From contig CBDUPA010000024.1 of assembly GCA_965368975.1 (NCBI GenBank), positions 16,790-80,789 on the forward strand: 64,000 bases of DNA, in the 5' to 3' direction. The stretch's first letter is position 1. Every line of letters starts with the position of its first letter. The position numbers and the translations under genes were made by a program. The notes below the pieces were generated by a model. That model did no database searches. It worked only from the letters and a program-made list of their open reading frames with translations, and was not told the origin of the DNA. The stretch comes from an uncultured bacterium. Lineage in GTDB: Bacteria > Acidobacteriota > Thermoanaerobaculia > Multivoradales > JAHZIX01. Below, in pieces: positions 32,622 to 58,826 of this stretch.

Positions 32622-33389
32622 TTACAGCTGTAGGTCGACGACCCAAGCCTCCGGCACTGACGCTTGCACTACCTCCCACGCCAGGTTGACCCACCGCACG
32701 GCCATCTTCTGCTGCCCCGGAGCCTCGATCCGTTCGCTCGCCAGGATCGAGCTGTCCAAGATGGCACTATCCGCCGTCGCGATGATCTCGGACGTGCGCT
32801 TGAGCAGGTGGTCGGGGTTGGGTACGAGTTCGACGCTCCACGGCCAGCCGTGTTGTTCAGCGACTTCGAGCATCAGGCCGCGCAAGCGACTGCTGTTGGA
32901 GACGGGGCGGTCGAGGTACCAGGTGGTGTGCCGGCAGCGATTCGTCTCGAGGAAGCGACCGATCAACTCCAGTGCCGGCAGCGTCTGGTGCACGCGGCGG
33001 TAGTGCCCCTGCATGGAGGCCAGATCGCGCGCGGTGCCGTCGAAGGCGTGGAAGACGACCCCACCACCGAGGGCGGATTCGACGGTGAGCAGGACGTTGT
33101 AGCCGTCGACATGCAGGGGCTGGTCACGTAGGGCTTTGGCTTCGACCCGCCGAGCTCGCCGCGACGCCACCGCGTCGGCGGACGCGACGCAGCGCTGCAG
33201 CGCCTGGCGTTGACGTTGCCGCAGGCGGTGGCGGTCGCCCACCAGCTTGAGCGAAGCCCTGGTCGAATAGTCGCGGCTGAGCAGCCAGGCATAGTCGGCT
33301 GCCGCCCGGCGCAATACGCCTAGCTCGGCGTCGGCGAAGTCGTGGGCGTCCTTGGGATGGGCGCCGCGGTTGGTCCTGGTGTCGGGCAT
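32622..33389 (-). CDS. Hypothetical protein with DUF434-like N-region and a PIN/NYN-like (YacP-type) putative nuclease core
   Basis: LKLVGDRHRLRQRQRQ segment followed by LHVDGYNVLLTVESAL, the YacP/NYN-style VDGYNV motif with downstream acidic residues. The assignment is tentative. Confidence 0.45.
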   Translation of the reverse strand: MPDTRTNRGAHPKDAHDFADAELGVLRRAAADYAWLLSRDYSTRASLKLVGDRHRLRQRQRQALQRCVASADAVASRRARRVEAKALRDQPLHVDGYNVLLTVESALGGGVVFHAFDGTARDLASMQGHYRRVHQTLPALELIGRFLETNRCRHTTWYLDRPVSNSSRLRGLMLEVAEQHGWPWSVELVPNPDHLLKRTSEIIATADSAILDSSILASERIEAPGQQKMAVRWVNLAWEVVQASVPEAWVVDLQL

Positions 33390-33410: not shown

Positions 33411-34061
33411 CTAGGACTTGTCCTCGCCTACAGCCTCCTGCGCGACGACATTCTGCAAGTCGAAGCGGAAGGGAGTGGCGCTGGCTCCGGGACCGCCACC
33501 GGTCATGACGATGTCGGCGGAGGCGACGCCCAACAGCGAGATCTCGGTGTTGATCGTCGACACGATCGCCGAGTTCAGTACTTCCCCTTCCTGCACTTGC
33601 GATACAACGCCAATGTACAGCGAGCGATTGAACTGGAACACGGCTCGCTGTTGGGGGACGACGTTGGGCCACAGCGCCAGCCTCTTGCCGTCCCGAAAGA
33701 TGTGGGCGTCGATCACTCCCTGTTGCAGGGCATTGAGGATCGCGACCTCGCTGGGCTCGGGAGCCGGGTGCTGGCTGCGTTGCAGGACGGTGCCGGTGGC
33801 GGTTTGCACCATGTCCCACTGCTCGCCGGCGTGGACGTCCATCAGGGGCGTGAAGTTGCCGTAGGCATCGCTGGCGCTGGCCTGGATCTGCATCGGGAAG
33901 GCGAAGGGGTGGAAGTCGCCGATGCCGAGGTTCTGGACGACGCGCCAAGCGATCGGGCTTGGGTCGTTGCTGAGCGCGAGATTCTTCTGAAAGATCACGA
34001 TCTCGACGTCGCCCGAGTCTTGCGACCGGTTGATCAGGTTGAGTTGAGTGGCGGTGTGCAT
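33411..34061 (-). CDS. Hypothetical protein (about 216 aa), two-lobed beta-rich, divergent from a Ser/Thr kinase gene
   Basis: ATG at 34061 with RBS GGAGAG 3 nt upstream (MHTATQLNLINRSQDSGDVEIVIFQ...). The ORF start at 34130 is an over-extension. No family recognised. Confidence 0.4.
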   Translation of the reverse strand: MHTATQLNLINRSQDSGDVEIVIFQKNLALSNDPSPIAWRVVQNLGIGDFHPFAFPMQIQASASDAYGNFTPLMDVHAGEQWDMVQTATGTVLQRSQHPAPEPSEVAILNALQQGVIDAHIFRDGKRLALWPNVVPQQRAVFQFNRSLYIGVVSQVQEGEVLNSAIVSTINTEISLLGVASADIVMTGGGPGASATPFRFDLQNVVAQEAVGEDKS

Positions 34062-34117
34062 GGTCTCTCCTTGTGTTTCCCTACTTCGGGCTCTTGAACG
34101 GTAAGATCTGCGCCAGC

Positions 34118-36778
34118 ATGAGCACCACACGTCACTTGAGGGAATCTCCCTCCGAACCGCCGAACTCGGACCTGATCAGTGACGAGGTCAGCAGCTCGGG
34201 CTGGCCGGAGCGCCTGGGGGCGTACCGAGTGCAGCGGTTGCTCGGACGCGGCGGCATGGGGGAAGTGTACCTGGCTTGGGATCAGAGACTCGAGCGGCAC
34301 GTGGCGATCAAGAGGTTGCGGCCGGAGCGGGTGACGGATGCGCAGCGGGAGCGGTTCCGGCGCGAGGCGCGGGCGGCGGCGCAACTGCAGCATCCTTCGG
34401 TGGTGCAGGTGTTCGACATCCTGGAGCTCGACGAAGGCGACGGCATCGTCATGGAGTACGTGCCCGGGCGGACGGTGGCGGAGCTGGTGCGCCACGGACC
34501 GCTGGCGATGCCGCTGGCGATGCGCTTGGCACAGCAGGTGGCGGAAGGCCTGGCGGCAGCGCATGCGCGCGGGCTGGTGCACCGCGATCTGAAGGCCGAG
34601 AACGTCATTCTCACCGAGTCGCTGGACGCCAAGATTCTCGACTTCGGCCTGGTCACGACGCGCGCGCCGACGGTCGCGGAAACCACCCTCACCGAACCGG
34701 GCGCGGTGCTGGGGACGGCGTCGGCGATGGCGCCGGAGCAGGCGCGCGGTGAGGCGACGGACGCGCGCACGGACTTGTTCGCGCTCGGCGTGCTGCTCTA
34801 CCGCATGCTGTGCGGCGCGGCGCCCTACGCGGGAGCCGACTCGGCCGATACGTTGCGCCGGCTGCGCGACGAGACGGCGATTCCGCTCTCCGAGCGGCGC
34901 TCCGAGGTGCCGGCACCGCTGGCGCGGCTGGTCGACCGGCTGTTGTCGAAGAATCCGGATCGGCGGCCGCAGAGCGGGCAAGAGGTGGCACAGTCACTGG
35001 CCGCCATGACTGGCAGTGCGGTGGTGCCGGAAGCCGACACGGGCGGCAGTACCTCGACCCTGCTGCTGCCCCCGGCGCGGCGCCGCCAGGTCCAGCACCA
35101 GGTGCGGCAACGTCGCCGTCGGTGGCTGCGCTGGATCGGCGTGGTACTGGCCGCTACGGTGGTACTGGCGGGGCTTTTCGCCTGGCTGCTGTCGTCGAGA
35201 GTGTCGCCCCCGCTGCGCGTCCTGGTGCTGGAGCCGGAGGTGACCGTGCGCGACGAGGTCGAGCGCCAGCGCCTGCAGGCGGTGGCCTCGGCCGTGCTGA
35301 CCGCGTCGCTGAGCGGTCTGGGTGGCCTGGACGGCGTTCAAGCGCTGGACCCGGCGCTGGCGGCTGAGGCGCAAACGCCTGTGTTGCAGGCGCGGGCGGC
35401 GGCGGCGGACGAGTTGCTCTACGCCGAGGTGGCGCCAGAGCCCTTCGGCGGTGGCGGGCGGGTGTCTCTGCGGCGCCTGGATGGGGCTACGGGTGCGGTT
35501 CTCTGGGCGGACAGCTTCGCGGTGCCGACCGATCGACTGGAGTTGCGCCTGACGGCGGACAGCGTTGCCGCCTACCTGCAGCGGGCCTGGCCGCATCAGC
35601 GGCCGCGCGAGGGCGTGCCGGTGCTCGACGTGCGACCGTTGGACTACGCGGCCTTTCTGGATCTACGCCGGCAGTTCGTCGCCGAGCGCCTGGTCGAGCC
35701 GTCGCAGCTCGACACCATCGAGACCATCCTCGAGAACTCGCCGCGTTTCTACAGCGGCTACCTCCTGGCGGTCACGATGCACTTGCAGCGTTTCACCTCC
35801 AGCCGCCGCGTCGAGCACTTGCAGCACGCCTCCGATCAGCTCGACCGCGCCGCCGAGCTGGCACCGGAGGCCCCGGAGGTGCTGTCCCTGCGCTTCGTCG
35901 TCCAGCGCCTGGGTGGCCAGCTCGAAGAAGCCGGCGCGACCCTCGACCGGCTGACCCGCCTGACGCCCGCCGATGTCAACCTGCTGTCGATGCGCGCTGA
36001 TCTGGCGCGTCAGCAGGGTGACACGGAGGTCGCGCTGACCTTCCTGCGCAAGGCGGTCGAGCGGGTGCCGTCCTGGGAACTGCGCTACCGACTGGCTTCC
36101 CTGGCGTCCAGAACCGGCGATCTGGCGACCGCGCGCGAACAGCTGCAGCACATCCTCGAACAGCAGCCGCAACACCCGCGGGCGCTGGCCCGCTTGGCCG
36201 ACGCGGAGCTGCTCTACGGTGACGTGGGGGCCGCGGTCGAGCTCTACCAGCAACTGGTGGTAGCAGCACCGCGGCGCAGTCTGCTGACCAATCTGGGGCT
36301 GGCGCAGTACCTGCTGGGCCGCTACGACGACGCCGTCGACAGCTACCAGCAAGCCCTGGAACTGGATGCCGAACATCCGATCGTGCTGCTCAACCTGGCG
36401 GATGCCGAGACGGCCTTGGGGCACGCGGACGAGGCGCGGGAGATCTACCAGCGTCTGCTGCAGCGGCTCGATGCCGCGGGTACAGACTTGCCGTTGAACT
36501 ACCGCATGGTGCGGGCACAGTGCCTGGCCCACCTGGGGCAGGTGCAGTCGGCGCTGGAAGTCGTGCAGCGTACCTGGCAGCAGGATCAGGACAACCCGGA
36601 CCTGGCCTACCAGGCGGCCGTGGTCTATGCCGTTGCCGGTGAACGGGCGTCGGCGCTGCTGGCGGCGCGCCAGGCGATCGAGCGCGGACTGCAGCCGCGC
36701 TGGTTGCGCGTGCCGGTGTTCGACAAGCTGGCGGCGCAGCCCGGGTTCCAGGACTTGTTGGCCTCGCCAGCGCTCTAG
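34118..36778 (+). CDS. Serine/threonine protein kinase with C-terminal TPR repeats (about 886 aa)
   Basis: YRVQRLLGRGGMGEVYLAWD, VAIKRL, HRDLKAENVIL, DFGL, APE motifs. A TM segment (WIGVVLAATVVLAGLFAWLL) sits after the kinase domain. Long TPR region with repeated LGLAQYLLGRYDDAVDSYQQALELD-type units. Confidence 0.8.
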   Translation: MSTTRHLRESPSEPPNSDLISDEVSSSGWPERLGAYRVQRLLGRGGMGEVYLAWDQRLERHVAIKRLRPERVTDAQRERFRREARAAAQLQHPSVVQVFDILELDEGDGIVMEYVPGRTVAELVRHGPLAMPLAMRLAQQVAEGLAAAHARGLVHRDLKAENVILTESLDAKILDFGLVTTRAPTVAETTLTEPGAVLGTASAMAPEQARGEATDARTDLFALGVLLYRMLCGAAPYAGADSADTLRRLRDETAIPLSERRSEVPAPLARLVDRLLSKNPDRRPQSGQEVAQSLAAMTGSAVVPEADTGGSTSTLLLPPARRRQVQHQVRQRRRRWLRWIGVVLAATVVLAGLFAWLLSSRVSPPLRVLVLEPEVTVRDEVERQRLQAVASAVLTASLSGLGGLDGVQALDPALAAEAQTPVLQARAAAADELLYAEVAPEPFGGGGRVSLRRLDGATGAVLWADSFAVPTDRLELRLTADSVAAYLQRAWPHQRPREGVPVLDVRPLDYAAFLDLRRQFVAERLVEPSQLDTIETILENSPRFYSGYLLAVTMHLQRFTSSRRVEHLQHASDQLDRAAELAPEAPEVLSLRFVVQRLGGQLEEAGATLDRLTRLTPADVNLLSMRADLARQQGDTEVALTFLRKAVERVPSWELRYRLASLASRTGDLATAREQLQHILEQQPQHPRALARLADAELLYGDVGAAVELYQQLVVAAPRRSLLTNLGLAQYLLGRYDDAVDSYQQALELDAEHPIVLLNLADAETALGHADEAREIYQRLLQRLDAAGTDLPLNYRMVRAQCLAHLGQVQSALEVVQRTWQQDQDNPDLAYQAAVVYAVAGERASALLAARQAIERGLQPRWLRVPVFDKLAAQPGFQDLLASPAL

Positions 36779-36833: not shown

Positions 36834-37643
36834 CTACGGGCGGATCGAGGGCGAGATCGGGCCGACCAGTTCACCGTCGTTGTCGATCGCTGGGTCTTCG
36901 CTCGACAGTGCCATCAGGCCGTCGACGGTACGGATGCGCACCAGGTAGCCGAAGCTGCCACGTTGCCCGCTGTCACCGCTCAGCACGACCTGGGCCGGTA
37001 CGTCGAGGAAGGACGTCACGTTCTTGAACGGCCCCAGGATCGGCTGGTCTCCCGGGAAGGCCACCTCGGGGATCCAGCGCGCGTCTTGGCCGAAGAAGTC
37101 GGGCGCGATGTTGAACTCGAAGACGGCCGTGTCGCCCGGTTGAATCGACAGGTTTGGAGGGTCGAGCGCCAGGGTCAGTGGCAGTCGGATCGACTTGTTG
37201 CTGCCGCTACCGGCCAGCTCGGCGCGTACCGTGACCTTGATGCGCTTGCCGGCGGCGAATGTACCCATGCGGTTGGCGGGCGTCAGAGTGATGCGGCCTC
37301 GGTTGCTGCGCTTGACGGCGCGGATGCGCCAATCTTCGCTGCGCGGCACGAGGGCGGCGTGATAGTCGAAGCGCAAGGGTTTCTTCGGCGCGCAGGGGTC
37401 GAGGAAGTGTTCGAAGCCCTCGAGGATCACGGTACTTCCGGAGACGGAAATGCGCGTGAAGGTCCCGCTGGGGGACAGCACCGTAGGGGCGAATTGCTCG
37501 TTGTTCAGCAGAGCTTGGTCGAACTCCCAGATCAGGCTGTCGCCAGCACGGAACTGATTGATCACAGTGTTCGTGGGGATCTTCGGCGTACCGGGCTGGC
37601 TCCGGTCGTTTTCGACCTGGATCCGGAAGTACTGAGAACTCAT
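36834..37643 (-). CDS. Hypothetical beta-rich protein (about 270 aa) immediately downstream of a Dam-like DNA methyltransferase
   Basis: Second ATG (MSSQYF..., 37643) has GGAG 9 nt upstream. The 537-aa ORF from 38447 is an upstream over-extension through the gap and the MTase 3' end. Composition is coding-like, while the opposite-strand ORF 36627..37739 is Arg/Gly-rich junk. No nuclease motif recognised. Confidence 0.4.
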   Translation of the reverse strand: MSSQYFRIQVENDRSQPGTPKIPTNTVINQFRAGDSLIWEFDQALLNNEQFAPTVLSPSGTFTRISVSGSTVILEGFEHFLDPCAPKKPLRFDYHAALVPRSEDWRIRAVKRSNRGRITLTPANRMGTFAAGKRIKVTVRAELAGSGSNKSIRLPLTLALDPPNLSIQPGDTAVFEFNIAPDFFGQDARWIPEVAFPGDQPILGPFKNVTSFLDVPAQVVLSGDSGQRGSFGYLVRIRTVDGLMALSSEDPAIDNDGELVGPISPSIRP

Positions 37644-37735
37644 GACGGTCATCTCCGTGAAGCGAGCGCGCCGAGGCGCTGCGGGAAAGAAATCGAGGAT
37701 GTGAAGAAGTCCAGTGTATCTCAGCGTGACGTCGG

Positions 37736-38782
37736 CTAGCTCCGTCCCACCAGCACGTACTCGCGCACTAGCGTGCGCTTGCGGTCGACGCCGGCGTGGT
37801 TGCCGAAGTGGTAGCGATGCGGCCGCTCGTGCACGTCGACGCGCGGCTTGTGACGCTGCAGCAGGTCGCACAGCACGTCGAGGTCGGGGAAGCCGTTGGA
37901 GGAGTAGGAGAGCACGACGGTGGCATCGCGGAACTGCGCGAACAGGCGCTCGAAGGCGTCGAGGGCGGTGCGCTTGGAACCGAATGGGGTGCGCCTCTTT
38001 TTGAGTTTCTTGACCCGGCTGGTGCTCAGGATTTCGGCGTCTGGTGCCCGCCACCAGGACATCAAGCCCTCGACGAAGTGGTAGCGCTTGATGTAGCAGT
38101 TGTCGTCGGCGCGTGGCACGTAGGGCGGGTCGAGGTAGACCAGGTCGATGTCCTCCAAGGTCTTGCCCAGCACTTCCGGTAGCGCGAAGACGTCGGCGCG
38201 CAGCGCTCGGTTGTCGCGGCCGTTGTCGAAGACCGCCCCCTGGAACACGTCCAGCGACTCCCGGAACAGCTGCGACAAGGGCAGGCGCAGATCGCGACGA
38301 CCGTCCTTGTAGCGCTCCGGGTCCCCAGCAACGGTGAACACGCCGCGCGGTTGACGCTTCATGCAGGCGCGGGCCAGCGCCGCGAGCACCAGGGCACGTG
38401 CGTGGTGGTGCTCGGCCGTCGTCTCCCAGGTGTCGATGCGAGCCCACACCGTGTCCAGGAAGCGCAGGTCGTCGAGAGTGAAGAAGATGCCGCCGAAGGT
38501 CTCTTCGATGAAGCGTCGAGGTGGCTGGTCGGGCCGCGCCGAGGGTGGCGTCAGCAACGCCTCGACCTGCGCCTCGTCGAGCCGGCGGTGCGAGTTCTCG
38601 ACGGTGGCGCGCGCGATCTGGTGTCCCAGTTCCAGGGTGTCGGCGGCGTGGACCTGCTTGCCCATGCGCTTGAGCAAGTAGGGCACGCAGCCACTGCCGC
38701 AGAACGGGTCGAGTGCGCTGTCGAAGTCGAGATCGGCGAAGATCTCGTGCAGCCAGGTCAGCAGCCGATGCTTGCTGCCCAT
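37736..38782 (-). CDS. DNA N6-adenine methyltransferase, D12 class (Dam-like)
   Basis: RYMGSKHRLLTWL (Dam N-terminal motif), FxGxG AdoMet motif DPFCGSGCV, and catalytic DPPY (LVYLDPPYV) in Dam order. Start set at the ATG at 38782 (MGSKHRLL); the ORF start at 38962 is a 60-codon over-extension. Confidence 0.75.
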   Translation of the reverse strand: MGSKHRLLTWLHEIFADLDFDSALDPFCGSGCVPYLLKRMGKQVHAADTLELGHQIARATVENSHRRLDEAQVEALLTPPSARPDQPPRRFIEETFGGIFFTLDDLRFLDTVWARIDTWETTAEHHHARALVLAALARACMKRQPRGVFTVAGDPERYKDGRRDLRLPLSQLFRESLDVFQGAVFDNGRDNRALRADVFALPEVLGKTLEDIDLVYLDPPYVPRADDNCYIKRYHFVEGLMSWWRAPDAEILSTSRVKKLKKRRTPFGSKRTALDAFERLFAQFRDATVVLSYSSNGFPDLDVLCDLLQRHKPRVDVHERPHRYHFGNHAGVDRKRTLVREYVLVGRS

Positions 38783-39095
38783 GTAGCGCAGGCGTGGAAA
38801 GCGACCGGCGTCGCGCAGGATGGCTGGCGAAGCGGAGTTGGATGCAGGTGGTGGATCGGCGGCGGGCGCTGGCGAGGACGTCACGCCGCCGATCCTAGCA
38901 GGGCGCTGGCTTGCTCGTGGCGCGAGCCTGTGGGGAATGCCGAGGACCGAAACAACACTCATAGGACGGAAAGACCGCTGGATCCGTATGACTAGATAGA
39001 TTTCCCGTCCAGCTCACTTGCCTTCAACTTGCAGCATGGTGGAGTACCCAACCCGGCTCCGAGAGCCGTCACAATTTTCCCTCGGGAGACGAAGC

Positions 39096-42000
39096 ATGAA
39101 GCGAGCACTGCGATCCGCACTGCACAACCTGCTGCTGGTGGCACTGGCCCTGGTCCAGCCCTGGGATTCGATACCGTTGGCAGCACAAGAGCTGTCGATT
39201 TCCGGCCGCATCCTGGACGACACCGGGCAACCCCTGGCGGCCGCGACGCTGGAGCTGGTGGCGGAACCGACGGCTTACGAGAGGTCGCAGTTGCTGGCCG
39301 AGGGGCGGGCGTATCCGGCACCGACGGTGCAGACGCGCAGTGCCGCGGACGGTCGTTTCCGCCTGGTCGCTCCGCAAGCCGGAATGTGGGTCGTGCTGGC
39401 CAAGGCGCCTGGACGGGGGACACAGGAGTTCGCGCTCCACCCGCTCGTACACTCGATGGCACTGCCGGACGTCGAGTTACAGCCGGTGACCTGGTTGGTG
39501 GTGCGTGGTTTGCCGGCGTCGGCCCGGGTCTTGGGGCAAGGCTGGATGCTGCGCGCCAATCCCTTCCAGTTGCAAGCCTGGGGGATGGCGACGCGTGTGG
39601 TGTCGGCGCCGCGGGCAGGTGGCCCGGTACAGGTGCCGGTCGACGCTGGTGAGCGGCTGCGCCTGGAGGCCTGGGCGCCTGGGTATTCGAGCGCCATGGT
39701 GGACGCGACGGGGCGCGATAGCTCCGTGACGCTGACCTTGCAGCCGCTGGGCGCGCGCTCCGTGGTGGTCAAGGATGCTCGGGGGCAGGTGGCCGCTGGT
39801 GTTGTGCTGCGGCTCGGGGAGGCTGGCTGGCCGGCCGCCGAAACCGATGCCGAGGGACGGTGCGCGCTGGCGCCACCGATGGGTGTCGAGAGCTTGTGGA
39901 TCGAGCTGCTGGCGCCCGATGGTCGCCGGGGACGCACCGCGCTGGAAGCGCCTCCTGACAATATGCCCCTGGAGCTCACCCTGCCGGCCTTGGTACGCAC
40001 TCGTGGCCGGGTACTGGTCAAAGACAGTCGCCAGCCGATCGCGGGAGCCTGGGTCTGGTATTCCGGGCGTGAAGCCGAAGTGGTGCGCACAGGGGCGGGG
40101 GGTACCTTCGACATGGAGACCGGAACCTTGTCACCCGGCACCGGGCGCGCGCAGAGTGTCCTGCAGGCCGCCGCGGCTGGGTACTTGAACTCCTTCGATG
40201 GGGTGGCTCGCAGGGGCGGCCCGCGCACGGTCCAGATTGCCGACGATACGGAGTCCACCTTGACCCTGCTGCCGGCGGTGCAGGTGCACGGCAGGGTGGT
40301 CGATACTCAGGATCGCGGGCTCGCCGGTGTTCGTGTGAGTGCTCGGCCGGATCTGGTGCGGCGGCAGTTCCAGACACTGTCGGGGGACGGGGCGGTTACC
40401 GATGCCCAGGGCCGATTCGTCCTGGCTGCCCTGGGTCCTGAGAGCGCTTACGAGATCAGCTTGCAGGCCGAGGGGTATGCGCGGATGTCGCAAACCCTGA
40501 CCACACTGCCCGCTGGCCAGGAGCAGCCGCGGCCGACCTTCACGCTGCAGCGTGGCCGTCGCATCTTCGGTTGGATTCTCGACGTCGAAGGGACGCCAAT
40601 CGCCGGTGCCGGCGTGGTCCTGGCCGAGAGCCAGCCGGCCATGCAGCGGACGTATCGCCGAAGTCTGCGCTTCCTGCAGGGGGCACCCGAGAAAGGACTG
40701 GAAGCCTTCACCGATGCCGAGGGCCGCTTCGAGTTCGTACACGTACCCGCCGGCACCTACGATCTGGAGGCCGACGCGGTCGGGTTTGTCGCCACGACGG
40801 TTCCGGGCTTGGAGGTCGCGCCGGGAACGGACGATCTGGACCTGGGAGACATCTATCTGGACCCGGGCGTGACGATCAGCGGCCGGGTGACCGATGCGCA
40901 GGGCCAGCCGCTGGCGGAAGTGTCCGTAACGGCCCGGCCGGTTGGGCAAGTGGGGGGCAGCCTGGTCAGAGATCTCATGCGGAGGCGACTCGGTGGCGAA
41001 GACGGTGGGATTCGCAGCGCCGTGGATGGTGTCTTCGAAGTGCCGGATCTGGCGCTCGGCAGCAAGGTGAATCTGCACTTCGATCGCGAGGGCTACCAAG
41101 GGGTGGAGATCCCCGGCGTCGAAGTGCCGCCGGCCCTGCCGGTCGAAGCCGTGATGCAGGCGTCGAGCCAGGTGCGTGGCCGCGTCGAGACCGAGCAGGG
41201 AGAGCCGGTGGAGCGAGCGCGGGTGATGCTGGTGACGCGTGGTAGGACCGATCGCTTCCGGGGACCGCTGTTCCATGTGACCGAGCTGGATGGAACCTTC
41301 ATCCTCGATCAGGTGCCGCCGGGCACCTACCAATTCAACGTCGCTGGGGAGAGCTTCTTGCCCTACCAGGGAGCTGACGTCGAAGTGACGGCGGGCAGCG
41401 ATGTCGAGGGCTTGGTAGCGGTGCTGCAGCCGGGTTCTGAGGTCGCTGGTCGCGTGCTCGATCCGCAGGGACGCCCCGTTGCCGGAGCCCTCGTCCAGCT
41501 GATGGTCGAGTCTGAGAGCAATCCCTTCGTGCGCGGCGTGATGAACACGGCGCAGGCCAGTACCGATGGCGATGGCCGCTACCGGTTGCAGGGCCTGCCA
41601 CCCGGTCGCCAATCGATCGAGGCGAGGCACGAGGCGTACCGCCGTGTGGTGGCCGATCTCGAGGTTCGAACGGGCACCAACGCGCTCGATCTGCACCTCG
41701 AGACCGGCTTCGAGATTCGAGGTCGCGCGGTCGATGCATTCGGCACCCCGCTGTCGGGCGTGGGCGTGCGGTCGTTCCCCACGGGGGGTGGCGATTTTCG
41801 CGAAACGGTAAGCGATCGTGCCGGTAGCTTCGTGCTCAGCGGTCTGCCCGAAGGCATGTTCCGGCTCAGTGCGGAACTCGAGGGCTACACGTCGGACGAG
41901 CGTTACACCCAAGTCCAGCTGGTGGGAGCGTCGGTCGATGGTGTCGAGCTCGTGCTGCGCCAGGGAGGCGCCATCGTCGGCACCATCAGCGGTCTCGAGT

Positions 42001-43259
42001 TCTTCGAGCTGTCCCAACTGCGCGTCAACGCCCGCCGTGCCCGTAGCAACGGTGGCGACGGCACGGTCAATCACCAGGGGGACTACCGCATCGACTCCCT
42101 GGCTCCCGGTACCTGGACAGTGGTCGCCTCTCTCGACGGACAGGGACGTACAGTGCAGGGAGACATTGAGCTGCCCGAAGGGGCGACCGAAGTGCGGCTC
42201 GACCTCGAGTTCACGCCGGGCTTCGAGGTGACGGGGATGGTCGTGCAGGGTGGGCAGCCGGTGACCGATGCCAGGGTCAACTTCGTGCCCAGCGGCGAAG
42301 GCGCCGAAGAGCGGATCGGCGCATCCGTATCCACCGACTACCAGGGCCGCTTCCGGCTCGAAGTATCGGCTCCCGGCACCTACACCGCCAGCATCCACCA
42401 CTTCGACAGCGGCATCCAGCACAACGAGGACGTCGAGGTGAGTCATGGCAGCGACCTGACCATCGAGCTGCCCACCAACCTCCTCGCAGGCCAGGTCCGC
42501 GACGCCAGCAGCCGCGAGCCGTTGGCCGACGCGCGGGTCGAGCTGCAGTCAGAGGGAGAACGGCGTTTGCCCGGTGGTCGCGTGACCACCGATGGCGAAG
42601 GCCGTTTCCGTTTCGAGGGCGTGGCCGCTGGAGACTGGACCGTCCGTGCCAGCAAGGACGGTTACGCCCCAGCTGAGCGGCGGGTGACTCTGGCGTCCGG
42701 GGACACCGTCGATGACGTGGTGCTCGACCTCAGCGCCACCGAGGGCCTGACCCTCGACGTCCTGCTGCCTTCCGGCGAAGCTGCCGATCAAGTCACGGTG
42801 GCGGTGGTCGACACCGGCAATCGCCCCAGCTTCACCGGCAACTACGGCACGGGTGAAGGAGGTCGCGTGCACGTCCCCTCGGCGCCGCCCGGGCAATGGG
42901 ACGTCCTGGTCAGCGGCAATGGTGGTGCCACCGTGCGCATCAGTGCGAGTATTCCCGGTCCACCGATTGCCATCCGCCTGCCCTACGCCGGCAGCGTCGA
43001 GGTGATCGTGCCCGAACTCGACGGTGGCAGCGTGCAGCAACCGGTCAAGGCCGAGCTCGTGAGCGCTGACGGCCGTGCCCACGCCGCCGTCTACCGCTTC
43101 GGAGCACCGCGCTCCGCCTGGACGCTGCGCGGTAGCCAGGTGCGCATCGACTCCGTGCCCGTCGGGTCGTGGCGGGTCAACGTCACGGCCGCTGATGGCA
43201 CCAGCTGGAGCGGTAGTGTGACCGTCACCCCGGGGGGTGTCGCGCAGCTGGTGCTCTAG
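39096..43259 (+). CDS. Very large secreted protein (about 1388 aa) composed of about 12-14 carboxypeptidase-regulatory-like (CarbopepD_reg / transthyretin-like) beta-sandwich repeats
   Basis: Signal peptide MKRALRSALHNLLLVALALVQPWDSIPLAAQ. Then a reiterated pattern every 85-100 aa (G[RT]V.D..G.P[LV]A.A.V...). No C-terminal TonB-dependent barrel. The opposite-strand 771-aa ORF is an antisense artefact. Confidence 0.65.
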   Translation: MKRALRSALHNLLLVALALVQPWDSIPLAAQELSISGRILDDTGQPLAAATLELVAEPTAYERSQLLAEGRAYPAPTVQTRSAADGRFRLVAPQAGMWVVLAKAPGRGTQEFALHPLVHSMALPDVELQPVTWLVVRGLPASARVLGQGWMLRANPFQLQAWGMATRVVSAPRAGGPVQVPVDAGERLRLEAWAPGYSSAMVDATGRDSSVTLTLQPLGARSVVVKDARGQVAAGVVLRLGEAGWPAAETDAEGRCALAPPMGVESLWIELLAPDGRRGRTALEAPPDNMPLELTLPALVRTRGRVLVKDSRQPIAGAWVWYSGREAEVVRTGAGGTFDMETGTLSPGTGRAQSVLQAAAAGYLNSFDGVARRGGPRTVQIADDTESTLTLLPAVQVHGRVVDTQDRGLAGVRVSARPDLVRRQFQTLSGDGAVTDAQGRFVLAALGPESAYEISLQAEGYARMSQTLTTLPAGQEQPRPTFTLQRGRRIFGWILDVEGTPIAGAGVVLAESQPAMQRTYRRSLRFLQGAPEKGLEAFTDAEGRFEFVHVPAGTYDLEADAVGFVATTVPGLEVAPGTDDLDLGDIYLDPGVTISGRVTDAQGQPLAEVSVTARPVGQVGGSLVRDLMRRRLGGEDGGIRSAVDGVFEVPDLALGSKVNLHFDREGYQGVEIPGVEVPPALPVEAVMQASSQVRGRVETEQGEPVERARVMLVTRGRTDRFRGPLFHVTELDGTFILDQVPPGTYQFNVAGESFLPYQGADVEVTAGSDVEGLVAVLQPGSEVAGRVLDPQGRPVAGALVQLMVESESNPFVRGVMNTAQASTDGDGRYRLQGLPPGRQSIEARHEAYRRVVADLEVRTGTNALDLHLETGFEIRGRAVDAFGTPLSGVGVRSFPTGGGDFRETVSDRAGSFVLSGLPEGMFRLSAELEGYTSDERYTQVQLVGASVDGVELVLRQGGAIVGTISGLEFFELSQLRVNARRARSNGGDGTVNHQGDYRIDSLAPGTWTVVASLDGQGRTVQGDIELPEGATEVRLDLEFTPGFEVTGMVVQGGQPVTDARVNFVPSGEGAEERIGASVSTDYQGRFRLEVSAPGTYTASIHHFDSGIQHNEDVEVSHGSDLTIELPTNLLAGQVRDASSREPLADARVELQSEGERRLPGGRVTTDGEGRFRFEGVAAGDWTVRASKDGYAPAERRVTLASGDTVDDVVLDLSATEGLTLDVLLPSGEAADQVTVAVVDTGNRPSFTGNYGTGEGGRVHVPSAPPGQWDVLVSGNGGATVRISASIPGPPIAIRLPYAGSVEVIVPELDGGSVQQPVKAELVSADGRAHAAVYRFGAPRSAWTLRGSQVRIDSVPVGSWRVNVTAADGTSWSGSVTVTPGGVAQLVL

Positions 43260-44934: not shown

Positions 44935-47307
44935 CTACACCGGAGGCGGTTCGCCGCCGCTCAGGGTCCCGCTCAGGCCGATACGCTCCAGGAGTTCCTG
45001 GAAGCGGGTCTCACCGCGCAGCGGGTCGAAGTACGGCCGTACATGCGTCCACACCAGGTCGGCGGCGCGGGCTTCGACGGCGTCGTCGAGGGCGTCCAGA
45101 GCCTCGGCGATGCGGCCCAGGCCGGTGTAGCAGCAGGCGAAGAGCGTGGGGGCGACGTAGCGCAAGGTGGCGGTGGTACGCAGGGCGTCGAGCAATTCTT
45201 CGGCGCGCTGGGTTTGGCCCATGCGGCCGTACGTGTGGGCCAGCGCCGAGGTGATCTCCAGGCTACCGCCGCTCAGCCGAGCCGCTTGCTTGTGTTCCTT
45301 GACGGCTTCGTCGTACATGCCGACCTGCTCGTAGGCCTGGGCCAGGAAGCAGTGTGCCATGGCGAAGCTGCCGTCCATGTCGATGCAGGTGCGGTAGGCC
45401 TCGGTGGCTTCGCGGTAGCGACGGGAGTAGAAGTACAAGAGGCCGAGGCTGATCTGGATGGCGGGTGATAGCGGGTCGAGTTGTTGCGCGCGCTTGAGGG
45501 CTTCGCCGGCCTGTGCGACGTAGCCCAGGGGCAGCAGGCAATTCATGGCGTACCACTGGTGTGTGGTGGCGTAGTTGGGGTCCAGCTCCAGGCCGCGGCG
45601 GAAGTCTTGGCGGGCGCCCGCGAAGTCCCAGTCGTAGTTGGCGCGCACGCAGCCGAGGGCGGTGTAGACCTCGGCCTGGTTCGGGTTGAGCGCCAGCGCC
45701 TGCTCGCCATAGGCCTTGGCGCGTGGCATGACGTCTCGTGGTCGCGCGGCGCCGTAGATGCCGAGGATGGCGTAGGAGTCGGCGAGGCCGGCGTAGGCTC
45801 GGCTGTAGTCGGGGTTGCTCTCGAGCGCTTGCTGGAAGTAGCCGATACCCTTGTGCAGGTCATCTTCGGTGCGCTTGTTCCAGCAGAAGCGGCCCTTCAG
45901 GTAGAGGTTGTAGGCCTCGAGGCTGGCGGTGTCGCGACCGGCGGTGGTGCGGGGCGGTGCTTTGATCAAGGTGGTCTCGAGGGCTTCGGCGATCTCGGCG
46001 GCGATCTCGTCCTGGATGTCGAATAGGTCGCGTAGCTCGCGGTCGTAGCGGCTGGACCACAGGTGGTAGCCGTCGGCGACCTTGGTCAGTTGGGCGCTGA
46101 TGCGCAGTCGCGAGCCAGCCTTGCGCACGCTGCCTTCGAGCACCCAGTCGACGTTCAGCTTGCGGCCGATCTTGCGGATGTCTTCGGAGCGGCCGAGGAA
46201 CTGGAAGGCCGAGGTCCGCGACGCTACGCGCAGGCCGGGGACGCGGGTCAGCAGGTTGATCAGCTCCTCGGCCATGCCGCAGCAGAAGTACTCTTGGTCT
46301 TGCTCGGCGCTGAGGTCGGCGAAGGGCAGCACGCCGACGGACGATTCTCCGTCGCTCTGCTGGGGCGGCAGACTGGCGGGCGGGTACGCGGGAGTGATCA
46401 AGGTCACCGAGGTGCTGGCCTGGCGCAGCACGTGCAGCTCGTTGAGCATCTCGGTGGCATCTTGGTACCGGTCGGACGTTTCCTTGGCCAGCGCGCTGTC
46501 GAGGATCAGGTCGAGATTGCCGCGGTCGCCGTCGCCCAAGTTGTCGATCGGCTCGATCTCTTCGTGCAGGATCGAGTGCAGAGCCGCCATGTGGCTGTCA
46601 CCACGGAAAGGGACCTTGCCGGTCAACATCTCGTAGAACACGACGCCGAGGGACCACAGATCGCTGCGGTGGTCGACGCCCAGTCCGCGCACCTGCTCGG
46701 GCGACATGTAGGTGACGGTACCGACGGCGGTGCCTTCCTGGGTCAAGCGGTCACCGGGATCGGGAGTGGAGCCGAGCTTGGCGACGCCGAAGTCGAGGAT
46801 CTTGACCACGCGGTCGGGGGTGATCATCAGGTTCGCGGGCTTGACGTCACGGTGCACGATGCCGTGCTTGTGAGCGGCGCCGAGGCCGTGTGCCGCCTGG
46901 ATTGCCACGTCGACCGCCTCGGACACGGGCATTGCGCCACGCGCGATTCGCCGGTCGAGCGTCTCGCCCGGGTAGTAGGCCATGACGATGAACAGCTGCC
47001 CTTCCGGGGTCTCGTCGATCTCGTAGATGGTGCAGATGTTGGGGTGGTCGAGAGCGGACGCGCTCTGAGCTTCCTGGAAGAAGCGGCGACGAGCGGTGGT
47101 CTCGTCGAGCATGCCCAGGGGCAGGAATTTCATCGCCACCTGGCGCCGCAGCCAGGTGTCCTCGGCCAGGTAGACCACGGCCATGCCGCCGCGACCCAGT
47201 TGTTCCTGGATGCGATAGTGCGAGATCTTGCGCCCGATGAGCGCTCCGGTATTGCCCTGCTTCATGGATCGCCGCGTCTTTGAGGAGGGAAGTATACCCC
47301 TACTCAC
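44935..47307 (-). CDS. Serine/threonine protein kinase with sensor-like middle domain and C-terminal TPR repeats
   Basis: ISHYRIQEQLGRGGMAVVYLAED, HRDVKPANLMI, DFGVAK, SPEQ motifs. A VGVLPFADLSAEQDQEYFCCGMAEELINLLTRVPGLRVASRTS module sits after the kinase. Then six or more TPRs. The start is a GTG at 47307; an alternative is the ATG at 47265. Confidence 0.8.
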   Translation of the reverse strand: MSRGILPSSKTRRSMKQGNTGALIGRKISHYRIQEQLGRGGMAVVYLAEDTWLRRQVAMKFLPLGMLDETTARRRFFQEAQSASALDHPNICTIYEIDETPEGQLFIVMAYYPGETLDRRIARGAMPVSEAVDVAIQAAHGLGAAHKHGIVHRDVKPANLMITPDRVVKILDFGVAKLGSTPDPGDRLTQEGTAVGTVTYMSPEQVRGLGVDHRSDLWSLGVVFYEMLTGKVPFRGDSHMAALHSILHEEIEPIDNLGDGDRGNLDLILDSALAKETSDRYQDATEMLNELHVLRQASTSVTLITPAYPPASLPPQQSDGESSVGVLPFADLSAEQDQEYFCCGMAEELINLLTRVPGLRVASRTSAFQFLGRSEDIRKIGRKLNVDWVLEGSVRKAGSRLRISAQLTKVADGYHLWSSRYDRELRDLFDIQDEIAAEIAEALETTLIKAPPRTTAGRDTASLEAYNLYLKGRFCWNKRTEDDLHKGIGYFQQALESNPDYSRAYAGLADSYAILGIYGAARPRDVMPRAKAYGEQALALNPNQAEVYTALGCVRANYDWDFAGARQDFRRGLELDPNYATTHQWYAMNCLLPLGYVAQAGEALKRAQQLDPLSPAIQISLGLLYFYSRRYREATEAYRTCIDMDGSFAMAHCFLAQAYEQVGMYDEAVKEHKQAARLSGGSLEITSALAHTYGRMGQTQRAEELLDALRTTATLRYVAPTLFACCYTGLGRIAEALDALDDAVEARAADLVWTHVRPYFDPLRGETRFQELLERIGLSGTLSGGEPPPV

Positions 47308-54944: not shown

Positions 54945-56315
54945 TTACGTTGCGTTTATTGGCCGCGGTTCAATCCAAGTTGCCACCGCTATTAGAAGTG
55001 CGAATGTTGCTAGAATTCTGTCGGCTGTTCGGTTCCAGGTCATGCGCACATGAAAGTTAATATGAAAAACTGCTCCGTTCTCAGTTGATAGTATCAAGCC
55101 TGAACCTTTCTTTACGACGGCAAGGATTCTAGGCGTTTGCTCAATTAGGTAGCATGGGGTGCCGTTGTGTCGCTTTGGCCTGCAGCCGTATATTGCGTTG
55201 TCGGAGTTTGAGATTAGAATGTTTTGGCCGTAGATGTCTTCGACTATGAAATCCGATTTGAATCCAGAGTAGATAGCGTTGGATTCTTCGCGGGTGGCAA
55301 GATTAATAGCAGATATGTCTCCATTTTCCTGGATAGCAAGTAGGTTATTTCTCTCGGTCAACATCAGGGAGCAAATCGGGCTAGCCCTTGAGGTAGGGAA
55401 CCGAAAATGTTTGAACGGGACAAAATCTTTGGCTGTATTTTTTTGTAGTATTAGAGGCTCATCCGTATTGAGGTCGAGGAAAGTGTGGCCCAAGTAGACG
55501 TGGCCAAGGTTGTTCGCTAGGATAAAGTCCATGTCTAGATCTTGACTAGGAGAGATTAGAAAATAGCGTGCGCACTCTGTTTCATCTGACGCGCGCTCTA
55601 GCCTTCCTGCTGTTGCTGCTTCTCTTCCGGTCTCAGCATCGATAAAACTGTAGCTGCCGTCGATTAGGACTAGACAGATGATAAGGCGATTTTCAACTAT
55701 CAGAGTTCCCAGTAGTGCTATGTCCTCAGTTCTGATGTCAGCTAGAGAAAAGTAGTCATTAGCAAGCTCCGAGATGACATGGAATTGATCCTTATGGCTT
55801 TCGTTCGGAGTGTCTGAGCTACCTGCTGAAGTGTAGGCAAGGCGTCCAGCCAAAATTGAGTCCTCGTTCAGCAGTACTATGCGATTCTGATCCAACCTGT
55901 GATTTGAAAATGCGAATGGTTGGCCTCCTTGTGATGCTACGACTGTAGGATCTTCTTCGAGACTTATCTCTCTGTGCTTCGCGGAGTGGTCATTGCTCGC
56001 AGATGCTGGGCTCCATAACGAGTAACTAATGATGCCCTTGTAGGCATTGAAAGACGTTCCATAGATTCGGTCGTTCTGTAGCCAGAGATCTTGATAAGCA
56101 GCCTTATGTGTATCCGCTCCGGTTGGATGGATGAGGTCATGACTAGTTACTATCAGGGATCTGTCCGTGCCCTTGGTGTAAATTAGTGCTACGAGCACGG
56201 TTATTGCCGATGCTCTGGAAATTACTCTGAATCTGTTTCGGATTTTAGCACTGCTTGCGTTTAGCCTGGCGAAAGCGTGGGTGTTGTGTAAGTAGTAGTG
56301 GAGTATGTGTCGCAT
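54945..56315 (-). CDS. Hypothetical protein (456 aa) on the low-GC island, N-terminal signal anchor, no recognisable family
   Basis: Long ORF with AT3-rich codon usage and a hydrophobic N-terminal segment (ITVLVALIY). No motifs recognised. Confidence 0.45.
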   Translation of the reverse strand: MRHILHYYLHNTHAFARLNASSAKIRNRFRVISRASAITVLVALIYTKGTDRSLIVTSHDLIHPTGADTHKAAYQDLWLQNDRIYGTSFNAYKGIISYSLWSPASASNDHSAKHREISLEEDPTVVASQGGQPFAFSNHRLDQNRIVLLNEDSILAGRLAYTSAGSSDTPNESHKDQFHVISELANDYFSLADIRTEDIALLGTLIVENRLIICLVLIDGSYSFIDAETGREAATAGRLERASDETECARYFLISPSQDLDMDFILANNLGHVYLGHTFLDLNTDEPLILQKNTAKDFVPFKHFRFPTSRASPICSLMLTERNNLLAIQENGDISAINLATREESNAIYSGFKSDFIVEDIYGQNILISNSDNAIYGCRPKRHNGTPCYLIEQTPRILAVVKKGSGLILSTENGAVFHINFHVRMTWNRTADRILATFALLIAVATWIEPRPINAT

Positions 56316-56324
56316 TGAATATGT

Positions 56325-56999
56325 CTAGTGATCTAGGTTCTCTGTTGCCCAGGAGGTGCAGGTGCCGCAAGCGGTTCTCACAGATGCTGCACAAATATAG
56401 ACCTCTTGACAACGAACACAACAGACGCTCCTCTCAGATCGCTTCCAATGTTGCGCGCTTTGGACTTGGGTCATGAAGCTACCTTCACCTTCCCGGAGTT
56501 GGATAGAGAGTTCAATATCGAGAAGTGAGTCGAATACTATTCTCCCTTCCAGGATCCTTTGGAAGGGGGCAATGACCGCGGCTTCGCCCGAGGGGTGAGC
56601 AAGTTGTTGTAGTGGAGTCCAAGTTCCGATTTCTATTTCCTGCCTGCTGCCAACCGACATATAGCCTTCAGCTCCCGTCTTAGAAACCAGTCCAAGCTTG
56701 GCAGAGACCTTTGCCGAACCCCCAGAGTTACGTTCGAACAGCACGACTCCAATCTGGTAGTTTGGATCAGATCCAGGGTCAATTATCAATACTGTGCTGT
56801 CAATGATCTCAAATTCGATCTCCAGCATTCCTGGCAAGTCTAGTCTTCCAGAGATCAATCTGTCTTGCTCCGCTAGGTGCCGGTAAGTGGGCAAGGTGTC
56901 TTGGGCTGAAAGGCTGTCAGGTAAGAAGACAAGCGACATGGCTAGAATGGCTTTTGCAACGCTGTTGCCTGTGATTGCGGTGGCCTTGTTCTTGGACAT
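56325..56999 (-). CDS. Hypothetical secreted protein (about 224 aa) on the low-GC island
   Basis: ATG at 56999 gives the signal peptide MSKNKATAITGNSVAKAILAMSLVFLPDSLSAQD; the ORF start at 57098 is an over-extension. The Cys-rich extreme C-terminus (CCVRCQEVYICAASVRTACGTC) is compositionally odd and may reflect a frame problem. Confidence 0.4.
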   Translation of the reverse strand: MSKNKATAITGNSVAKAILAMSLVFLPDSLSAQDTLPTYRHLAEQDRLISGRLDLPGMLEIEFEIIDSTVLIIDPGSDPNYQIGVVLFERNSGGSAKVSAKLGLVSKTGAEGYMSVGSRQEIEIGTWTPLQQLAHPSGEAAVIAPFQRILEGRIVFDSLLDIELSIQLREGEGSFMTQVQSAQHWKRSERSVCCVRCQEVYICAASVRTACGTCTSWATENLDH

Positions 57000-57079
57000 T
57001 GCCTTCTCTTTCTGCCAAGGGTGTGAGCAGTGTAGTTTTGGTGGTGAAGCTTGCCCTTTGGAGCTAAAACCAAAGTGGT

Positions 57080-57739
57080 CTAACTTGAGCCTGACCACAT
57101 TCTACCTGAGTTTAGGTGAGACGATGCGATCCCTTTAGTAGTGACAATCTGGAGTTCCTGTGGAAGGTCGCGGTCCCTGTTGAATCCCCGCTCTTGGATC
57201 AACTGCGCGGCTCGTCTTGCATCGGCAAGGTCTTCTTCGGTAGCCACTTGCAGCAGACTCTTGATGTCCATCGCGTCCTGAGGTCGGTTCTCATCGTCGC
57301 GCGCAAGAAGCTTCAGCGAGAGCAGATGTCCCACCCGCGCTACGGGCAGTAGCAATCCCGGGAAGACTTCTAATACCCGAGCCTGGGCCACGATCTCTGG
57401 CTCTATGCCCGAGGATGCGAACAGCAAGTCCAGAATGGCCTCGTTCCCAGTTGCTTCTGGCGGTAGTAGTCGAACCGTAGATAGCCGCAGGGTAGCCTTT
57501 TGCTCGACCACGGCAACGACCTGATAACCTTCACCCTGAAGTTCTCGGATCAGGTGCTCGGCATCCGCGTCGCTCGCTACGGCAAGTGCCAAGTCGACAT
57601 CCCGCGTAAAGCGTGGTTCTGTTTGGGCTGAGACGGCCAAGCCACCGACGAGCGCCCAAGGATGGCCAAATCGCTTCAGGCGCTTCTGCGCTCGTCGCAG
57701 AAGCGCTTCTAGGTCGCTACATGTTTCTTGCGTGGCCAT
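57080..57739 (-). CDS. Nucleotidyltransferase-fold toxin-like protein (AbiEii/MenT-like)
   Basis: NTase signature ALVGGLAVSAQTEPRFTRDVDLALAV (hGG[S] ... DxD). About 219 aa. Preceded by a small overlapping ORF, the typical type IV/VII toxin-antitoxin layout. Confidence 0.55.
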   Translation of the reverse strand: MATQETCSDLEALLRRAQKRLKRFGHPWALVGGLAVSAQTEPRFTRDVDLALAVASDADAEHLIRELQGEGYQVVAVVEQKATLRLSTVRLLPPEATGNEAILDLLFASSGIEPEIVAQARVLEVFPGLLLPVARVGHLLSLKLLARDDENRPQDAMDIKSLLQVATEEDLADARRAAQLIQERGFNRDRDLPQELQIVTTKGIASSHLNSGRMWSGSS

Positions 57740-57936
57740 TCGATCGGTTCTCCAGGCCCGTCCCCGAATTCGGCCCCAGGTCGTTCGTGCAGCCAGGCCC
57801 GGAGCCGCTGGTGGAGTTCTTCCTCAGGGGCTTCTGGATGCCGTCTCTTCAAAGTCTGAAGCATCATCCGGCGACCGGCGATGTGAAGGTCGAAGGCGGT
57901 TCGCAGCTTGGCCGCGGCGATTTCTTCCTGAGTCAT
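57709..57936 (-). CDS. Small (75 aa) putative cognate antitoxin of the NTase toxin
   Basis: Overlaps the start of the NTase gene by 31 nt on the same strand. Small, charged and helical. No family-level match recognised. Confidence 0.35.
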   Translation of the reverse strand: MTQEEIAAAKLRTAFDLHIAGRRMMLQTLKRRHPEAPEEELHQRLRAWLHERPGAEFGDGPGEPIEWPRKKHVAT

Positions 57937-58000
57937 GCCGATATTCTACCGGACAGGCTTGGGAAAGGCTCTTGCGCTAGACTGGTGGCTTGAGGTGCCC

Positions 58001-58375
58001 ATGTCGAGTCGCTTGCAAGAGATCATCGAGTACCACCGCCGTCGCGATGCCCAAGAGCACGCGCGTCGAGAAGCGTTACGCTCGACAGTCCTGGCTGATG
58101 CTCGGGCAGCGATCCGAGAGATCGGTCCTGAGTTCCCGGCGATCCAGACGGTCTACCTCTTCGGTTCGATTCTTCGTCCAGGAAAGTTCAGCGAGCATTC
58201 GGACATCGACGTAGCGATTGATTGCGCGGATGTCTTCGTCGAGAGCCGCTTTCGGCGTGAACTGGAGCGCCGCTGCCACCGGCAGGTTGACGTGCGTCCG
58301 TGTGTCGAACGAGTGGCGGAAGCAGTCGAGCAGACCGGAGAGAAGGTCTATGAACGAAAAGTACCTGCTGCTTGA
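58001..58375 (+). CDS. Minimal nucleotidyltransferase (MNT, HI0073-like) of an MNT/HEPN toxin-antitoxin pair
   Basis: IQTVYLFGSILRPGKFSEHSDIDVAID is the classic GS...DhD MNT motif. ATG at 58001 (MSSRLQEII...). Confidence 0.65.
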   Translation: MSSRLQEIIEYHRRRDAQEHARREALRSTVLADARAAIREIGPEFPAIQTVYLFGSILRPGKFSEHSDIDVAIDCADVFVESRFRRELERRCHRQVDVRPCVERVAEAVEQTGEKVYERKVPAA

Positions 58376-58826
58376 GCGACAGATCGAGCGCGACTGGGAG
58401 GCTGTGGAGCGGTTCCTGGACCAGCTCGCGGAGGTCTCGGTCGATAGCGATACCGAGGAAGGGCCGCTGATCATCACAGGCTATCGCCTCCATCACCTCT
58501 ATACGGCGATCGAGAATCTCTTCTTCAACATCGCTCGCGGCTTCGAGAATCAGCTGGAGAAGGACAAGGGCTGGCACAGTCAGTTGTTGCAGCGCATGGT
58601 CTTGGATCTGCAGCCGATTCGGCCGGCAGTGATCGATCAAGCCTCTTTCGAGCTACTCGACGAGTTGCGCGGATTCCGGCATGTCTTTCGCACCAACTAC
58701 GGCACGCGGCTGCAAGGTGAGCGTATGAAGCCGGCACTGAAGGCAGCGCAGCGGCTGCGTCAGGGTCTACCGGCGCAGGTCGAGCAGTTCATGGGCGTCG
58801 TCCATGCCCTGGCCACGGAGGGGTGA
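58350..58826 (+). CDS. HEPN-domain / nucleotidyltransferase-substrate-binding (HI0074-like) protein, partner of the MNT
   Basis: Overlaps the MNT 3' end by about 25 nt. About 158 aa, helical, with an R-x(3-5)-H-like motif (ELRGFRHVFRTNYG). ATG at 58350 (MNEKYLLLERQ...). Confidence 0.55.
   Translation: MNEKYLLLERQIERDWEAVERFLDQLAEVSVDSDTEEGPLIITGYRLHHLYTAIENLFFNIARGFENQLEKDKGWHSQLLQRMVLDLQPIRPAVIDQASFELLDELRGFRHVFRTNYGTRLQGERMKPALKAAQRLRQGLPAQVEQFMGVVHALATEG

Follow-up and report, generated by a model that had tools for sequence, protein, structure and literature searches.

A solitary D12-class adenine methylase, a probable chance neighbour of an unrelated kinase-linked gene, at a putative defence-gene insertion site in an uncultured acidobacterium

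The window analysed here is a 64-kb stretch of DNA (64,000 nucleotides, nt) from contig CBDUPA010000024.1 of an uncultured bacterium of the Acidobacteriota, and the locus in question consists of two genes on its minus strand. The first encodes a solitary D12-class N6-adenine DNA methyltransferase (37736..38884; hereafter the methylase), recognised from PF02086, the PADLOC model MTase_II and a family alignment. It is followed by a spacer of 92 nt between its stop and the next start (37644..37735), which includes a GGAG ribosome-binding site, and then by the gene of a protein of 269 amino acids (aa) that belongs to a rare unnamed family with two predicted cupredoxin/Ig-like beta-sandwiches (36834..37643). 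On the plus strand, the pair is flanked by a Ser/Thr kinase with a C-terminal TPR sensor region (34073..36778; Pkinase E 1e-47 plus TPR), which is convergent with the 269-aa gene across a 55-nt gap, and by a 1413-aa protein with ten CarboxypepD_reg repeats (39018..43259), which is divergent from the methylase. A first-pass annotation made from the letters alone had described both flanking genes correctly, and had proposed that the two genes between them form a restriction-modification (R-M) or other defence pair with a novel nuclease or, failing that, that an orphan Dam-like methylase stands beside an unrelated neighbour. The relationship between the two genes is the subject of this report.

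The methylase and its missing endonuclease

The longest open reading frame (ORF) of the methylase extends up to an ATG at 38962 (37736..38962, minus) and contains RYMGSKHRLL, DPFCGSG and DPPY, the motifs from which a D12-class enzyme had first been called. This call was confirmed by the PF02086 MethyltransfD12 model, which scored 47 bits over residues 60-288 (E 3.7e-12; gathering score 22), and by the PADLOC type II methyltransferase model (MTase_II, E 6e-78). The motif order is of the alpha type, with DPFCGSG (FxGxG, AdoMet motif I) about 190 residues N-terminal of DPPYVP (motif IV). Both motifs were invariant across a 22-sequence alignment of the methylase family, and every invariant residue of that alignment (more than 100) is kept in the window methylase. 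With the Dam subfamily model TIGR00571, on the other hand, it reached 28.9 bits against a curated cut-off of 114.85, and a PDB sequence search with the family profile returned no match. The enzyme is Dam-like in class only and no orthologue of Dam, that of E. coli included.

Database annotations start the methylase at Met61, position 38782, and the 5′ limit of the first-pass annotation agreed with them. Such a start is shorter than the likely one and would remove the FPxLRY motif, which is conserved in the family and encoded upstream of Met 38782. In L003, a Logan contig from a sister species, an AGGA-N8-GTG at 38884 is conserved and the DNA homology with the window starts at 38901. Because of the upstream FPxLRY, the conserved AGGA-N8-GTG and the reach of the homology, the true start is likely to be the GTG at 38884 (AGGA 8 nt upstream). 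Against the 89%-identical orthologue in L003, the ratio of non-synonymous to synonymous substitution rates (dN/dS) of the methylase was 0.17 at a dS of 0.39, and the gene is kept intact under purifying selection. Most likely it still methylates a short adenine-containing site, which by analogy with DpnII could be GATC-like; the frequencies of GATC and other 4-bp palindromes in the window gave no hint of the specificity.

At E<=1e-10, 4291 relatives of the methylase were retrieved from the database. Species-representative genomes contained 538 relatives, distributed across Acidobacteriota, Planctomycetota, Alphaproteobacteria and further phyla. For the best 80 loci, all ORFs lying up to 5 kb from the methylase were clustered, and one neighbour family stood out: in 68 of the 80, the methylase is immediately followed, at a median gap of 6 bp, by a same-strand gene of about 280 aa. 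Direct BLASTP found the same downstream gene in 66 of them, and a hidden Markov model (HMM) of its product added three copies truncated where their contigs end, as well as a pseudogene in fragments. The downstream gene was assigned to the DpnII family of endonucleases by PF04556 (30.1 and 28.4 bits, gathering score 23) and PADLOC REase_II, the DpnII match being weak and limited to the catalytic core. With one locus uninformative, a DpnII-like endonuclease thus stands beside the methylase in about 69 of 79 informative loci (about 87%), and only about nine methylases are truly solitary. Two metagenomic methylases, P0010 and P0014 (61% identical), also showed the methylase-endonuclease arrangement. 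As a rule, therefore, members of the methylase family supply the modification enzyme of a type II R-M system made up of two genes, and the first-pass annotation had sought the nuclease at the correct position.

No such partner was found in the window, as the endonuclease HMM gave nothing at E<=10 against six-frame translations of the whole 64 kb and nothing against the contigs of the closest relatives. Compared with DpnII/MboI-type systems, in which a D12 alpha adenine methylase is joined to a PF04556 endonuclease, the window methylase is a full-length member, 55-63% identical to its family, that differs in the absence of the endonuclease from the window and in its low similarity to classical Dam and DpnM. 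With orphan Dam-like methyltransferases it shares the stand-alone adenine methylase, the purifying selection and, in the window, the lack of a cognate nuclease; one other locus of the methylase family has a decaying endonuclease. In that locus, from a metagenome-assembled genome of the Acidobacteriota (L008, 10986..11492), a DpnII-like endonuclease lies in two fragments downstream of an intact methylase, which may be a snapshot of decay toward orphan status.

The next-closest methylase clade (L004 to L006, methylase P0005, 64-66% identical) was solitary as well. There the methylase was followed, in place of the DpnII-like gene, by a convergent HTH_3 protein and then by a variable gene, encoding either a 246-aa unknown or a 314-aa AAA_31 protein, a pattern which suggests that the gene behind this methylase has been replaced repeatedly.

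We also considered whether the methylase might not be an orphan, its cognate endonuclease lying elsewhere in the genome, or might be a recent arrival on a mobile element. The first alternative draws on the window being part of an 87.7-kb contig and on the roughly 87% of family members that are linked to an endonuclease; it is opposed by the near-constant adjacency of the two genes in this family, at the median gap of 6 bp given above. The second is opposed by the synteny of the methylase locus in two species at a dS of 0.39, by a GC content at third codon positions (GC3) of 0.86, typical for the host, and by the lack of any integrase, transposase, tRNA or other mobility marker near the methylase. 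Taken together, we regard these alternatives as having a small chance of being correct.

The 269-aa protein and the convergent kinase

The 269-aa ORF runs from an ATG at 37643 to a stop at 36834, with the GGAG 9 nt upstream of its start. As the first-pass annotation had noted for a same-strand protein of about 270 aa lying after a 92-nt gap, it belongs to no recognisable family: the product had no match in Pfam, NCBIfam or PADLOC. Neither a terminator nor a sigma-70 promoter was detected in the spacer, and no Rfam family, tRNA, sigma-70 promoter or intrinsic terminator was found to mark the locus. When compared with its counterpart in the sister species, the gene had a dN/dS of 0.15 at a dS of 0.53 and is thus under purifying selection. 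Its product has no signal peptide and is described as cytoplasmic.

The family proved to be very rare. Among 5.8 billion proteins, a word-indexed search recovered only the protein itself and one 85% orthologue; scanned exhaustively with HMMER, 1.84 billion cluster representatives gave 13 matches. Eight of these were proteins of 177-298 aa (mostly 244-298 aa) with 23-35% identity, and the remainder were giant repeat proteins of which a single Ig domain was matched weakly. Repeating the word-indexed search with a profile of ten family sequences retrieved three proteins only. The family alignment revealed an internal duplication, in which the pattern PGDxVxWxF ... GPF ... GxGxxGxxGxFxY occurs twice. 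No His, Cys or Met was found in the invariant or near-invariant columns of this alignment (A5), and no acidic/lysine catalytic motif was conserved among the invariant residues.

Structure prediction with AlphaFold2 gave a pLDDT (predicted local distance difference test) of 31 on an alignment of two sequences, and a usable model was obtained only after the remote HMMER homologues had been added. On the resulting 10-sequence alignment, the model was all-beta with 19 strands, a mean pLDDT of 75.7 and a predicted template-modelling score (pTM) of 0.54. Foldseek matched it to tandem Ig and multicopper-oxidase architectures. PD-(D/E)xK, HNH, GIY-YIG and PLD folds, the nuclease folds for which a search had been proposed, were all missing from the fold-search lists, and a PDB sequence search with the family gave insignificant matches to Ig light chains only. 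The predicted fold shows the Greek-key beta-sandwich of the cupredoxin superfamily, and the 269-aa protein is predicted to consist of two cupredoxin/Ig-like beta-sandwich domains and to be no nuclease. The family differs from blue copper proteins in having no conserved His/Cys/His/Met copper ligands, and no copper site is expected since conserved His, Cys and Met ligands are lacking. From known copper-less cupredoxin-like domains (EfeO/FtrB-type; SO1698/DUF1888) it is set apart by its tandem two-domain architecture and by its specific association with a TPR Ser/Thr kinase.

This association was seen in every informative context of the family, five in number (the window together with the sister species, P0129, P0123, P0127 and P0128). 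All five show a convergent gene at a distance of 0-55 nt, and the C-terminal TPR sensor region of its product shares 37-46% identity with that of the window kinase. The convergent companion is a Pkinase-TPR protein of 859-901 aa in four of them; in the fifth, the kinase head gives way to an OmpR-type Trans_reg_C domain, with the sensor region retained (39% identity across 491 aa, E 5e-73). A sixth context, P0124, contained a matching C-terminal fragment only and was too short to be informative beyond that. In three lineages an FHA-GAF-sigma54 activator is encoded upstream of and divergent from the 269-aa-family gene, and P0123 is preceded by a perfect sigma-54 promoter, TTGGCACGCACCTTGCT (L172 5878..6000, also L173). 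No FHA-sigma54 activator was found in the window. A sigma-54-like -24/-12 element, TGGGACGGAGCTAGC, is present there at 37735..37749 (minus), 92 nt upstream of the 269-aa ATG; it straddles the methylase stop and keeps the GG and GC with two mismatches, and the equivalent TGG is lost in the strain of the sister species that carries DISARM genes (see below). Two-mismatch sites of this type occur 93 times in the window against about 70 expected, which is at chance level. Judged from its gene neighbourhood, the most likely role of the 269-aa protein is to act as an accessory to, or as an output of, a signalling module of the Ser/Thr-kinase / FHA type.

In the P0123 locus itself (L172/L173), with its divergent FHA-GAF-sigma54 activator and convergent TPR Ser/Thr kinase, bpMoxR, fvmX7 and ivWA genes are found nearby. 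The window encodes a second Pkinase+TPR Ser/Thr kinase of 790 aa (44935..47307, minus), about 8 kb from the first, which has no gene of the 269-aa family adjoining it.

The bond with the kinase has no equivalent on the methylase side. The 269-aa gene was found in none of the 80 methylase loci (tblastn, chance matches only, E>2), and the methylase was found in none of the contexts of the 269-aa homologues, the five contexts other than that of the window included. The first-pass proposal of a type II R-M or methylation-dependent defence pair, in which the 269-aa protein would be a novel nuclease, is favoured by the position of the two genes on one strand, 92 nt apart and with no terminator between them, and by the 269-aa gene occupying the usual place of the endonuclease at a similar length (269 against about 280 aa). 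It now appears very improbable indeed, as the protein has no homology to the family endonuclease, its predicted fold is cupredoxin/Ig-like with no nuclease match and no conserved acidic/lysine catalytic motif, its family is conserved with the kinase and never with the methylase, and in a sister strain an insert that has DISARM genes at either end stands between the two. The 269-aa protein as a highly diverged member of the family endonuclease was likewise rejected, given the lack of a profile match, the all-beta fold class and a synteny independent of the methylase.

The methylase stop codon and DISARM

The sister species was compared by means of three Logan contigs (L001, L002 and L003) that derive from two sister sequencing runs, the samples for the locus of the sister strain being SRR16995658 and SRR16995659. 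Over the giant protein and the methylase, L003 is collinear with the window at 80% and 89% DNA identity, respectively, and its order is giant protein, methylase, DrmC (PADLOC E 7e-60) and DrmB C-terminus (E 1e-10), with methylase and DrmC tail-to-tail. In L001 the collinearity with the window begins at 37724 and takes in the 269-aa gene and the kinase (85%); here a divergent DrmD SNF2 helicase (E 5e-254) lies upstream of the 269-aa gene, giving the order DrmD, 269-aa gene, kinase. At the start of L002, the final 21 nt of the methylase run straight into the upstream region of the 269-aa gene, as in the window, and from the breakpoint onward L002 is 99.85% identical to L001 over 3891 bp. Because of this near-identical flank, L002 and L001 represent one population with and without an insert.

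The empty site is the junction AGCTAGCCGAC across the methylase stop codon (37731..37741, minus). Homology with L003 ends at 37743 and that with L001 begins at 37724, and the breakpoints fall within 4 nt, GGGGCGA[AGCT]AGCC, corresponding to window positions 37738-37741 in the last codon and stop of the methylase. The insert of the sister strain is bounded by DrmC/DrmB on the methylase side and DrmD on the 269-aa side, the assembled sequence covering both ends only. Since the window species and its sister, which are about 85% identical in DNA (dS about 0.4-0.5), both have the empty junction AGCTAGCCGAC, it is most parsimonious to take the empty state as ancestral and the DISARM insert as gained recently. 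On this comparison, the 3′ end of the methylase appears to be an insertion site for defence genes. The accessory-looking character that the first-pass annotation had ascribed to the context is borne out in one sense, defence genes being gained and lost at the methylase 3′ end.

The DISARM genes next to the sister methylase raise the question of whether the methylase serves as their modification module, the window genome having lost a drmD...drmC cassette and kept a remnant. Such a role could be read from the 89%-identical sister methylase standing tail-to-tail with drmC at the end of the insert, and DISARM operons do require a methyltransferase (PMC9142583); the shared empty junction AGCTAGCCGAC nevertheless makes the empty state ancestral and DISARM the newcomer, and the wider survey also speaks against it. 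A methylase homologue was found in none of 80 DrmC-containing metagenome loci, in most of which DrmB was detected directly upstream of DrmC, and neither DrmD nor DrmC occurred in any of the 80 methylase loci. The related cassettes of L109 and L113 carry their own large DrmMI (1193-1345 aa, PADLOC E = 0) upstream of DrmA, which agrees with the published composition of DISARM operons (PMC9142583). In the window, tblastn with the sister DrmD, DrmC and DrmB C-terminus found nothing, DrmA, which the sister contigs did not show, not having been searched for, and the DrmMI model was absent from the PADLOC matches of the window methylase. Set against class 1 DISARM (DrmD, DrmMI, DrmA, DrmB, DrmC), the sister strain has homologues of DrmD, DrmB and DrmC at the methylase stop codon, whereas the window has none of these three searched genes and its methylase is a D12-class enzyme of about 380 aa as opposed to the 1193-1345 aa of DrmMI. 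The methylase is thus probably not a DISARM component, and we consider it unlikely that the window holds a DISARM remnant.

The middle of the sister cassette might be without a DrmMI of its own. If this were true, DISARM would have recruited for its self-marking a D12 methylase that a decayed type II system had left behind. There is a small chance that the locus holds something of this novelty, either in that the resident orphan methylase acts as a docking point and modification module for incoming DISARM or, separately, in that the 269-aa protein founds a copper-less tandem cupredoxin-like family whose members are outputs of TPR-kinase / FHA-sigma54 signalling.

The closest DrmC relative that we found (57% identity) lies in L092 at 10841..12013 (minus); next to it, in convergent orientation, comes a tyrosine integrase of the P4 type (Arm-DNA-bind_3 with Phage_integrase). 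Its cassette has the order DrmA-DrmB-DrmC, with no DrmMI or DrmD directly upstream. The integrase suggests that the DISARM lineage of L092 rides integrative islands, and agrees with a view of such cassettes as mobile cargo.

Interpretation and further features of the window

The reading that we hold to be probable is that a solitary methylase from a type II R-M lineage has become, by chance, the neighbour of an unrelated kinase-linked gene at a site where defence genes insert. This amounts to the fallback of the first-pass annotation, whose own grounds for giving up the pair (a methylase that stands without the neighbour in relatives, and a neighbour with no nuclease-like fold) are what the 80 loci and the predicted structure have supplied. 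The methylase family is normally the modification half of a type II R-M system with a DpnII-like endonuclease directly downstream. The endonuclease would have been lost in the window lineage and the methylase retained under purifying selection, possibly for an epigenetic or housekeeping role independent of a cognate restriction enzyme, or for protection from incoming R-M systems of the same specificity. The 269-aa protein and its convergent TPR-sensor Ser/Thr kinase would form a conserved module of their own, which elsewhere also includes an FHA-GAF-sigma54 activator. The 3′ end of the methylase would be the insertion point at which the sister strain gained its DISARM-bounded insert.

Several observations weigh against this reading. 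The methylase and the 269-aa gene may be co-transcribed, given that the spacer holds no detectable terminator. Confidence in the fold of the 269-aa protein is moderate (pTM 0.54, from ten sequences), and the DpnII match by which the family endonuclease was named is, as said, weak and confined to the catalytic core. An endonuclease could lie elsewhere in the genome, beyond the 64 kb of the window. The link to the kinase is one of neighbourhood, and convergent genes are not co-transcribed. GATC, finally, occurs in the window with an observed/expected ratio of 1.02 and shows no bias.

For annotation, the locus indicates that an unknown gene of about 270 aa behind a methylase was here not sufficient to call an R-M or defence pair, the usual position of the DpnII-like endonuclease being held by an unrelated kinase-linked gene. 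It would further offer a natural example of a type II methylase that has outlived its nuclease and is kept under selection, as well as of the strain-level gain of a DISARM insert right next to a methylase, with the site resolved to the single nucleotide. For the very rare beta-sandwich family, the strict association with a TPR Ser/Thr kinase is the only functional clue. None of these findings overturns current understanding.

Apart from the locus, two regions of the window were noted. An ORF of 239 aa (33411..34130, minus), situated between a DUF434+DUF5616 gene (32622..33389) and the start of the kinase, has a coding-like GC3 of 0.82 and no match in Pfam, NCBIfam or PADLOC; its 5′ end overlaps the annotated start of the kinase. 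Further along, a low-GC island at 54945..58826 (GC 0.47-0.58 against about 0.66 elsewhere in the window) looks like horizontally acquired accessory DNA. It contains two minus-strand ORFs (456 aa and 257 aa) with no Pfam match, an AbiEii-type nucleotidyltransferase toxin at 57080..57739, and an MNT/HepT-like toxin-antitoxin pair encoded at 57935..58375 (Polbeta/NTP_transf_2) and 58218..58826 (HepT-like_2).

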